The notes beneath the pieces were generated by a model. That model saw only the letters and a list, made by a program, of their open reading frames with translations, searched no databases and was not told where the DNA came from. A DNA stretch of 64,000 bases from Octopus vulgaris (lineage: Eukaryota). Positions within the stretch are counted from its first letter, which is position 1. Each line of letters opens with the position of its first letter. The stretch lies in NCBI GenBank assembly GCA_951406725.2, contig OX597836.1, positions 15,624,001 through 15,688,000 of the forward strand. The letters are read 5' to 3'. Made by a program: the position numbers and the translations under genes. This document shows positions 25,001-28,000 of the stretch, one piece after another.

Positions 25001-28000
25001 CCTATATTGTAGATTTGTATAACTCCCAAAGGGAGGCAGATAAAATCTGCCTTTTATAATAAGAGACTAGCACTGTGACCCGGCAACGCTGGGTCATAGT
25101 GCTAGTGCATGTATATACAGCTGCATGCGTGCACACATACACGAGAGTACTGTCCAAGTCTCTGACCAATCACATACAGCTAGCTGGCATTCAATTGGCG
25201 TATCAAGTTTCAGGCATTTTGATTGGGTTTTGGATAGAAAATTCACAAAAAAGTCACTTCTATTGTTGTTTTAATGGCTTTGCAGGGTGACTGGGGAAAT
25301 TTAAAGATGTGCACGACCACCCTTGGACGGTTTTGAATGACCACAGAAAGTGCGAGCCCTCTAACTAAAAAATTGTGGATTTGTATAAAGGACACACACA
25401 CAGACACACAGACAGACATTTTGCCGTTTATATATAGAGAGATTTCTCATATTCATGTGTCTTCCATTACAGAAATGTTCCGAAGAGGTTCAAATGAAAC
25501 AAAACCATTTGCTCACATTTGCCAGAACTCAACCATCAACGTCCAAAGTAAGTGAATCGATTATCGCACTTCTGCAACATTATCAATGGTTTCAGTTTGT
25601 TATTGTGGTCGGTAGTCGTCCGATCTGGCAGGAGACGGCTGACGCTCTCACTAAACTGGCGGCCAAAAACAACTTCACGGTTCGGGATGTTGTACACTTT
25701 GATGAACCCTACATAAGTGGTGGTGGTGTCCGTAAGATCGTCATGGAAACCTATGAAAATACTCACAGTAAGAAAGACTCACTATTATCTGTGTTTTTTG
25801 GTTTTTGTTAATTTTTTCCCCCCTGAATACATCATCATCATCATCATCATCATCATCGTTTAACATCCGTTTTCCATGCTAGCATGGGTTGGAAGGTTCG
25901 ACCGGGGTCTGGGAAGCCTGGAGGCTGCACCGGGCTCCAGTCTGATCTGGCAGTATTTCTACAGCTGGATGCCCTTCCTAACGCCAACCACTCTGTAAGT
26001 GTAGTGGATGCCTTTTATGTGCCACCAGCACAGGTGCCAGGCGAGGCTAGTAACGGCCACAATTGGTTGGTGCTTTTTACGTGTCACCGGCACAGAAGCC
26101 AGTCAAGGCGGCGCTGGCATCGGCCACATCCTGATGGTGCATTTTACGTGCCACTGGCACAGGTATCACAACTACAATTTCAATTTGATTTTTTGATGTT
26201 AAATGGAAATTGTAGTTGTGATACCTGTGCCAGTGGCACGTAAAATGCACCATCCGAACGTGCCACCGGATGACTATTTTTTCTTTTATTTGCTGTGTCT
26301 GGAGAAAGAGGCAGCATCTATGGCACTTCGCATGTCCTTCAAGAAATGGTGAAGTTGGACAATTGAACATTAAAATGACAATAAAATGATATACAACAGA
26401 ACTATATCAATCAATTCTTTTCCTATATTGATTAAGCTAATTAGTAAAAGCCATTTTTGTCTAAATATACATTATTTACATTCGACGGATATTTGTCCTC
26501 ATCTTGTTTGTTGTTAACACAACGTTTCGGCTGATATACCCTCCAGCCTTCTTCAGGCTTCTTGGGGAAATTTCGAACCTGGGTTCTCATTCCTAAAGTA
26601 TTTTTCAATGTTATTATTATTAATATTATTATTGTTGTTGTTGTTCAGGTCAGTGCTTGGAATCGAACTCGGAATCTTGGGGTTAGTAGCCTGCGCTCTT
26701 AACCACTACACTTAACCACTATGCCACTATGCCATATGCCCACGGGTATATGGCGTAGTGGTTAAGAGCACAGGCTACTAACCCCAAGATTCCGAGTTCG
26801 ATTCCAAGCAGTGACCTGAACAACAGCAACAACAACAACAACAACAATAATAATAATAATAATAATAATAATAATAATAACATTGAAAAATACCTTAGGA
26901 ATGAGAACCCTGACTCGAAATTTCCCCAAGACACCTGAAGAAGGCTGGAGGGTATATCAGCCGAAACGCTGTGTTAACAACAAACAAGATGAGGACAAAT
27001 ATCTGTCGAATGTAAATAATGTAAATAATAATTCCTAATCTCTTAATTATAGAACTGTTTTGTCTAAATATATTTTTAATTAATTACCCACCTTAATGTT
27101 GTGCTGCCAGTTTATATATTTTTAGGTGACCATCATGCTCTTACTGAATTTGTACGGACCCTGAAGTCTATGGGTCTGACAGACAGTGGGGACTATGTCA
27201 CCATAGGGGTCAATGATCAACCTGATGACCCCACAAAAAGAATAAAGTATTTCATTTTTGGTAAGTTGTTGATGTTGTTGTTGTTGTTGTTTTTTAGCCC
27301 TAGGTCAGTCCTGCTCAGGTAGATCTTCAGTCAATGATGTCCCATACATGATCATGCTAAGTATTTAGTTGTAGTGATAGTAGTAGTAATTAGCAGAGGT
27401 GGTGGTAGTATTTGTAGTTAGTAGTAGTAGGGGGGTGGTAGTAATATTAGTCAGTGGTGGTAATAATAGCAGCAGTAGTAGTAGTAGCTGTGGTGGTAGT
27501 AGTAGTAGCAGTAGTCAGTAGTAGTAGTAGTAGTAGTAGTAGTAATAGTAGCAGTAGTAGTAGTGGTGGTGGTAGTAGTAGTAGTGGTGGTGGTGGGTAG
27601 TAGTAGTGGTGGTGGTGGTGGTGGTGGTGGTGGTGGTGGTGGTGGTGGTGGTGGTAGTGGTGGTGGTGGTGGTAGTAGTAGTAGTGGTGGTGGTGGTGGT
27701 GGTGGTAGTAGTAGCCAGCATTCAAGGTGAGGATGTGTACTAGATTGACCTGTGCTGCTGGCGTTGAAGTGGTATCCAGACTGGTGAATGTGGGAGTGGT
27801 CAGCTGGTAAGGCGGTGAGCTGGCAGAATCATTAGCACACCGGGCAAAATGCTTAGTGATATTTCATCTGCCTTTACATTCTGAGTTCAAATTCCGCCGA
27901 GGTCGACTTTGCCTTTCATCCTTTCGGGGTCGACAAATTAAGTACCAGTTGCACACTGGAGTCGATGTAATCGACTTAATCCATTTGTCTGTCCTTGTTT

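Follow-up and report, generated by a model that had tools for sequence, protein, structure and literature searches.

Within a 64,000-nt window of the Octopus vulgaris genome (GCA_951406725.2, OX597836.1, 15,624,001-15,688,000, forward strand; all coordinates below are positions in this window), a palindromic insertion occupies 26455-27072. It is probably a head-to-head double insertion of an abundant, non-autonomous passenger of Penelope-like elements (PLEs), one that bears a tRNA-like head and a hammerhead ribozyme motif. Its 3' end, where the hammerhead lies, likely imitates that of a PLE, so that a PLE protein would copy the family's RNA into AT-rich DNA. We advance more tentatively, as a possibility, the fuller reading of a true short interspersed element (SINE) with its own 5' RNA polymerase III (Pol III) promoter, driven by PLEs, present in ~100,000 copies, with a working hammerhead and a leader that joins the strands. 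The full palindrome is a minority form of insertion, the unit of the family being a single arm.

An earlier note, made from the letters of this DNA, described two inverted arms flanked by a 15-bp target-site duplication (TSD), and the repeat, the centre and the A and B boxes were all recovered. The 15-nt direct repeat is exact (26455-26469 and 27058-27072, by search of the window); allowing up to one mismatch, the word occurs twice in the whole window, both times flanking the element, where 0.06 occurrences are expected. The left arm (26470-26741, minus strand, 272 nt) and the right arm (26744-27057, plus strand) lie in inverted orientation, head to head, and differ by 12 mismatches over 210 columns outside the microsatellite (94% alike) and in the length of their linkers. 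By alignment and contigs, the left arm is a full-length family copy that lacks a tail and stops where most copies of the family end on the 3' side. For the last 36 nt of the right arm there is no counterpart in the left; two of them can also be read from the TSD, whose last two bases on the left may alternatively be read as arm end, and this leaves 34, in keeping with the ~34 extra 3' bases first noticed. From the self-complementary centre (26737-26748) outward, the right arm, on the plus strand, comprises the tRNA-like head (26744-26818; A box 26751-26761, B box about 26794-26804), an (AAC)n(AAT)n linker (26819-26880; 26611-26645 on the minus strand in the left arm), a hairpin region (26894-26929), the minimal type I hammerhead (26930-26975), a 3' body with 9-nt tandem repeats (26976-27029) whose last positions, 27023-27029, are the family's main 3' end, and the 34-nt tail found on this arm only (27024-27057). 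The left head additionally holds short tandem duplications of the A-box region (26700-26740, minus strand) adjoining the centre, which the earlier note does not mention, at near single-copy depth in same-species contigs (0.6-3x flank depth).

The family was studied through the contigs of four public runs aligned to 26700-27260, a span of one arm, the centre and the right flank, with the microsatellite skipped. Of the 24 rows listed for public runs, 20 contain some of this stretch, and the 19 with a share of at least 0.28 fall under four organism codes; a small-share insect-metagenome row was excluded from the family analysis. Three DNA runs from two species contributed 24,112, 28,965 and 25,093 aligned contigs. 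Summed depth relative to unique flank is 75,000-120,000x over the head and 120,000-220,000x over the hammerhead in these three runs, which gives an order of magnitude and no copy number. In a fourth run, X16, guessed to be RNA, family depth relative to flank is ~10-fold below that of the DNA runs. Because depth collapses left of ~26738 and right of ~27029, reaching almost single-copy level beyond 26719 on one side and 27080 on the other, and because many of the loose contig ends listed run out into diverse flanks at 27023-27029, one arm (~290 nt) is the family unit. The bin just left of the centre reaches 1.4-1.9% of head depth in the three DNA runs, an upper bound for palindromes with the same centre; at most ~2% of heads can belong to such palindromes, and the proposal that the palindrome is the unit was rejected on this ground. 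The tail bin (27042-27060) stands at 360-510x flank depth, a figure that the divergence of this copy may lower, and the tail is therefore family sequence carried by a minority of copies.

Head and 3' part are tied together in copies other than this one. Six of the 15 joints listed, from a total of 120, connect the head to the 3' part on the same strand, two of them with linker-like letters between; figures for loose ends likewise come from 24 listed of 933 rows. Judged by contigs and by the open reading frames (ORFs) of the window, the family is short, non-coding, dispersed and of high copy number, as a SINE should be. It gave no matches in the viral contigs and prokaryote genomes searched. 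A coding reading of the 3' part was set aside, as its open frame of ~50 codons matches two host gene models only. These two Octopus gene models (P0004 and P0005) start with the translated hammerhead region and are either exonised copies or annotation errors; one of them comes from O. bimaculoides, which places the family in that species as well. Within the window, two 5'-truncated fragments confirm that the element is one of a family, as had been suggested from its 3' end: the first (47496-47556, plus strand) starts in the middle of the hammerhead and reaches the main 3' end, and the second (59444-59716, minus strand) is split by another repeat into two pieces (59716-59678 and 59466-59444).

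No arm is complete as a hammerhead at this locus, and a strict hammerhead scan of the window returned no matches because each arm is damaged. The right arm has stem I at 26930-34/26971-75, the core at 26935-41, an extra A at 26942, stem II at 26943-48/26957-62 and GAAA at 26963-66, with a predicted cut after 26970 and a C at position 16.1 (26969). Its minimum free energy (MFE) structure has the hammerhead topology. The left-arm motif (26517-26561, minus strand) keeps an intact core and GUU, has a stem I of only 2 bp, with changes at 26558-26559, and is misfolded in its predicted MFE structure; self-pairing of the hammerhead piece amounts to -5.7 kcal/mol in the left arm as against -2.1 kcal/mol in the right. 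Searched by core (CUGANGA, stem II of at least 5 bp, GAAA), the window holds two sites (26935, plus; 26556, minus), where shuffles hold a mean of 0.03. Across the family, each of the four runs has T at 26969 in 95-97% of depth, and this T makes the GUU site whole; stem I shows no variant above 10% in family contigs. Core position 7, which is free in hammerheads, is U in 72-88% of depth and is the sole non-CpG core change above 10%; CpG positions of the family are 8-16% decayed in the DNA runs, as for neutral copies. The majority letters of the contigs spell a complete minimal type I hammerhead, with CUGANGA, GAAA, NUH and stems I and II. The contigs bear out the consensus first proposed at every point but core position 7, where U prevails.

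Minimal hammerheads of PLEs are marked by a stem I of 4-5 bp, an extra base before stem II, a G10.1-C11.1 pair and a palindromic 15.2-16.2 (PMC4209133), and the octopus motif has all of these. We consider it likely that the hammerhead has been kept as part of an end recognised by protein, and that it would cut only as a dimer or with protein. The hairpin that precedes it, with GAAA and a short palindrome, is hammerhead-like minus CUGA. Contrary to the earlier note, which places it in each arm, it is intact in the left arm only and damaged in the right, and its identity as a vestigial first hammerhead was not established: a relaxed descriptor matches 27 of 100 shuffles and one unrelated site. 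Rfam gave no gathering-level match in the window, only chance hairpin matches at E-value level and none to a hammerhead or tRNA model. Elsewhere in the window, 6737-6760 (plus strand) combines TGAAGA, a short stem and GAAA, a hammerhead-like core minus its first C, and lies near a repeat that also occurs at 55812-55970.

As an outside check, metagenome contigs were scanned by core and stem II alone, which yielded 28 loci. Having no blastn similarity to the arm at E 1e-3, these are unrelated elements. A stem I of at least 3 bp after NUH is present in 10 of the 21 distinct motifs, compared with 4.0 in partner shuffles (1 of 2000 reached 10), a test that is generous because several of the 21 are relatives; covariation in stem I is seen across unrelated elements only. 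Inverted duplicates spanning the motif occur at 9 of the 28 loci (7 distinct), and palindromes are therefore common around such hammerheads. In these nine (L002, L004, L009, L013, L015, L019, L020, L022 and L024), the contigs are animal-like and the core lies inside inverted repeats of 107-598 nt. A and B boxes gave two stray matches among the metagenome loci. L019 has a small palindrome centred beside its hammerhead core; a reverse transcriptase (RT) fragment on the same contig was considered as a partner and rejected, as it reads as an unrelated, broken piece of LINE (long interspersed element) type ~900 nt away.

The tRNA-like head likely drives Pol III transcription. Scanned with an A and B box consensus taken from general knowledge, the window contains three paired boxes, one in each arm and one in another repeat (10893), and none was found in 100 dinucleotide shuffles. 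In both arms the boxes are internal, at the 5' end and at tRNA spacing, as in SINEs. The head may resemble tRNA-Arg; its best phage match, a weak one (E=2), falls on a tRNA gene. Divergent promoters, as far as the data go, are a by-product of insertion geometry. Other tRNA-headed repeats with different bodies lie at 10883-11100, 44073-44308 and 56624 (minus strand), none with a hammerhead core.

The ends of copies bear on how the family inserts. Copies end 3' at 27023-27029 and at 27057, that is, 53-87 nt past the predicted cut, and contig depth shows no step at 26971; integration therefore appears to use uncut RNA. The earlier note called the element ribozyme-processed, and processing at the cut before insertion is not supported by these ends and depths. 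Six of the 15 joints listed link the start of the head (26739-26759) to an opposite-strand piece that starts at 26915-26978 and varies in length. One such inverted partner starts at 26972, beside the predicted cut (three contigs in run X3, one in X7), a weak hint that some RNA is cut. PLEs are known to carry a truncated copy of themselves, inverted and lacking its 5' part, beside the 5' end, together with a tail of 30-40 bp that only one end has, by a mechanism described as open (PMC8557442). The octopus family has inverted, 5'-truncated partners at the 5' end, and the 34-nt tail of the right arm, seen at this one locus, is one-sided and of matching length. In Anolis, both strands of AT-rich DNA are cut and then extended by a PLE protein, which begins reverse transcription at two internal sites, the limits of the tail. 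The protein works with uncut RNA and aids the cleavage of its own hammerhead, and a tail on one side is said to be found in PLEs alone (PMC11167929). O. vulgaris itself holds 190 PLE families at 6.83% coverage (PMC13282606 supplement). Contigs and published marks together support what had been proposed at the outset, namely that the family is SINE-like and non-coding, contains a minimal hammerhead and shows insertion marks of PLE type. Another repeat family in the window (48343-48955) has two partial copies, one inverted (48474-48774) and one in tandem, a PLE-like layout without the hammerhead core.

We propose a model in which Pol III would make an RNA running from leader through tail. A PLE RT-endonuclease would bind the 3' part of this uncut RNA and nick both target strands 13-15 nt apart. 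A first complementary DNA (cDNA) would begin where the tail ends, and a second where the main 3' end lies. Usually the second cDNA would stop early, giving a short inverted partner; here both cDNAs would have reached the 5' end and joined via the self-complementary leader, slippage leaving the short duplications. Cutting by the hammerhead would be dispensable for insertion. As to the joining route within this model, annealing of two cDNAs is in our estimation as likely as not, the folding back and self-copying of one cDNA is a serious contender, and later rearrangement is unlikely. The two-cDNA route is favoured family-wide because the partners are truncated 3' pieces, and fold-back is favoured for some copies because short inverted heads occur: run X3 has 67 contigs with an inverted head at the same centre, without the duplications and of mixed lengths.

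Contigs in three runs share one upstream sequence, so the centre appears to belong to the family as its 5' leader and not to have arisen by chance joining. The loose ends before 26737 comprise 72, 66 and 6 contigs (runs X3, X7 and X16) with an agreement of 0.69-0.79, and a TATA-like word lies 23-29 nt before 26737. In a subfamily, a shared leader of at least 30 nt that includes a TATA-like word precedes the head; it may point to source genes or to a longer unit. The arms share minority letters at 26772, 26939 and 27008, which fits one template or one subfamily. A contig from a second species (organism C) aligns from 27059 through the exon, preceded by 179 unlike letters, and is likely an empty site, compared on the right flank only. 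These two observations sustain the view that the palindrome was inserted in one event. At the quoted rate of 0.0036 per million years (PMC13282606), the insertion would be roughly 8 million years old if the arms began identical. This copy is decayed and likely inert.

Several results weigh against a PLE passenger. A LINE-driven SINE would likewise be compatible with a 15-bp TSD and with tandem repeats at the 3' end. In contigs the head reaches no more than 0.40-0.75 of the depth of the hammerhead, continuity between the two rests on the two arms and a few joints, the contigs being cut at the microsatellite, and the joints and loose ends listed are a small part of the whole. Neither Rfam nor ARAGORN (0 genes) gave a significant match between the head and a tRNA. 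The fold z-scores of the hammerhead pieces are modest (-1.25 in the right arm), and no compensatory stem change above 10% is visible within family contigs. The 102 ORFs of the window gave no RT or GIY-YIG matches. An autonomous PLE sharing the 3' end was found neither in the window, nor by protein search (which returned the two host gene models), nor in the available part of the PMC8557442 supplement, and Hydra-1_Obim, the one octopus PLE hammerhead listed there, differs from that of the family.

The family could instead be a retrozyme in the manner of SM-alpha, its multimers cut by the hammerhead into monomers that are circularised and reverse transcribed, as the earlier note's wording would imply, but we consider this unlikely. 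The majority hammerhead is complete, one of the joints listed in run X3 runs tail to head (27024 to 26735), the inverted partner at 26972 adjoins the predicted cut, and SM-alpha pairs a Pol III promoter with a hammerhead (PMC6765202). Yet the tail-to-head joint lies away from the cleavage site, and copies end at the head and well past a cut that leaves no step in depth. Moreover, the defining feature of retrozymes is a tandem array in which every unit has its hammerhead (PMC7229834; bioRxiv 10.64898/2026.07.22.740005), whereas the three copies of the window are dispersed; tandem head-to-tail units with ends set by the cut, the mark of non-LTR (non-long terminal repeat) retrozymes, were not what we found. 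A tRNA SINE driven by LINEs is another reading, with a captured PLE end, the hammerhead as passenger and the palindrome a rare template switch; the 15-bp TSD, the AT-rich target and the 9-nt tandem repeats at the 3' end would suit it, as would the failure to find a PLE partner among window ORFs or by protein search. Twin priming by LINEs, however, inverts the 5' part without duplicating the 3' end, and inverted 3'-end duplicates at the head recur in other copies. Although RTE, R4/Dong and CR1 LINEs are abundant in O. vulgaris (PMC13282606 supplement), the tail on one side only is held to be peculiar to PLEs (PMC11167929), and we find a LINE-driven origin improbable.

Depth is the main argument for two separate families, PLE-end fragments and a SINE head, fused in a subfamily or at a few loci that include this one: hammerhead depth is 1.3-2.5x head depth, and contigs do not bridge the linker. 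We give this little credence, since other copies, from two species, have joints on the same and on the opposite strand that tie the head to the 3' part, loose ends before 26915 lead on into more of the family's sequence, and 5' truncation together with inverted 3' partners explains the depth excess. That the palindrome is an artefact of assembly or of chimeric reads is hardly credible. None of the contigs listed spans the whole stretch, but the arms can be told apart by 12 mismatches in 210 columns and by linkers of unequal length, the flanking TSD copies are exact, and run X1 has a tail-to-flank junction (27029-27260) and the duplications at ~2x flank depth.

The palindrome sits in an intron of a receptor guanylate cyclase gene, ~53 nt upstream of the next exon, which lies outside the element (27125-27259, plus strand, residues ~292-336). 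All 19 tblastn pieces of a protein attributed to Octopus sinensis are collinear on the plus strand (21493-50212), and over a stretch of the second exon the gene matches this protein at 100% identity. In the pre-mRNA the palindrome would form a ~270-bp hairpin 53 nt before the splice acceptor, a possible substrate for RNA editing. Just upstream of the palindrome lies an abundant repeat of another kind, which contains direct as well as inverted units (26005-26262), and the window also contains a fragment of a mariner transposase helix-turn-helix (24005-24454, minus strand) and a WASH-like exon with WAHD and WH2 (1781-2572, plus strand).

Ohshima and Okada reportedly described three tRNA-derived SINEs from octopus in 1994, OK, OR1 and OR2. 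The present family resembles these in genus, tRNA-like head and high copy number, a match by description and not by sequence; it may be one of the three and so perhaps already has a name. OR2 has been listed as a CORE SINE (PMC4758252). In the 2026 O. vulgaris annotation most SINE bases are unclassified, and the available supplement makes no mention of hammerheads (PMC13282606). We found no literature report of a hammerhead-bearing octopus SINE or of a PLE-driven tRNA SINE, Repbase, Dfam and the 1994 consensus lying outside the comparison. The available text of PMC10886601, PMC4758252, PMC3531059, PMC8967140 and PMC3681739 draws no link between octopus SINEs and hammerheads or PLEs. Sequence words of the family gave no matches in papers, and one unrelated match in the PMC8557442 supplement, where line breaks may hide others.

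Beyond the locus itself, a self-complementary leader acting as a strand-joining signal would, if true, explain how PLEs form inverted repeats. A short family of very many copies is also a large natural set of junctions, from which two-ended priming and fold-back can be separated computationally. If our reading holds, part of the octopus SINE or Penelope annotation would be one hybrid family with a ribozyme motif. SINEs are taught as passengers of LINEs, and a tRNA-headed family riding PLE enzymes would, if true, widen the range of partners beyond LINEs; SM-alpha is a precedent in part.

Among known systems, endonuclease-bearing PLEs share with the octopus family a minimal hammerhead near the 3' end, an inverted truncated partner, a one-sided tail of 30-40 nt and an AT-rich target (PMC4209133, PMC8557442, PMC11167929); in contrast to them, the octopus family has no ORF, and a tRNA-like head with A and B boxes replaces the pseudo long terminal repeat (pLTR) promoter. 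Non-autonomous derivatives of PLEs are known, such as MRC1 and other Chlamys passengers (PMC8557442) and a short Penelope in Heliconius (PMC6685494). Like the non-LTR retrozymes (PMC7229834; bioRxiv 10.64898/2026.07.22.740005), these are also short and non-coding and are thought to borrow PLE enzymes, but a tRNA-derived head does not appear in the available descriptions of either, and retrozymes are tandem arrays. The closest precedent is SM-alpha of Schistosoma, together with Sj-alpha, non-coding elements in which Pol III boxes are followed by a type I hammerhead, as they are here. SM-alpha is tandem and is cut into monomers, with a promoter that ends at the 3' end, and its single copies cannot spread (PMC6765202; PMC8490949). 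Monomers released by cleavage with a 3' promoter are not seen in the octopus family, which differs in having its promoter at the 5' end, dispersed copies that extend past the cut, a minimal hammerhead of PLE type and the insertion marks of PLEs.

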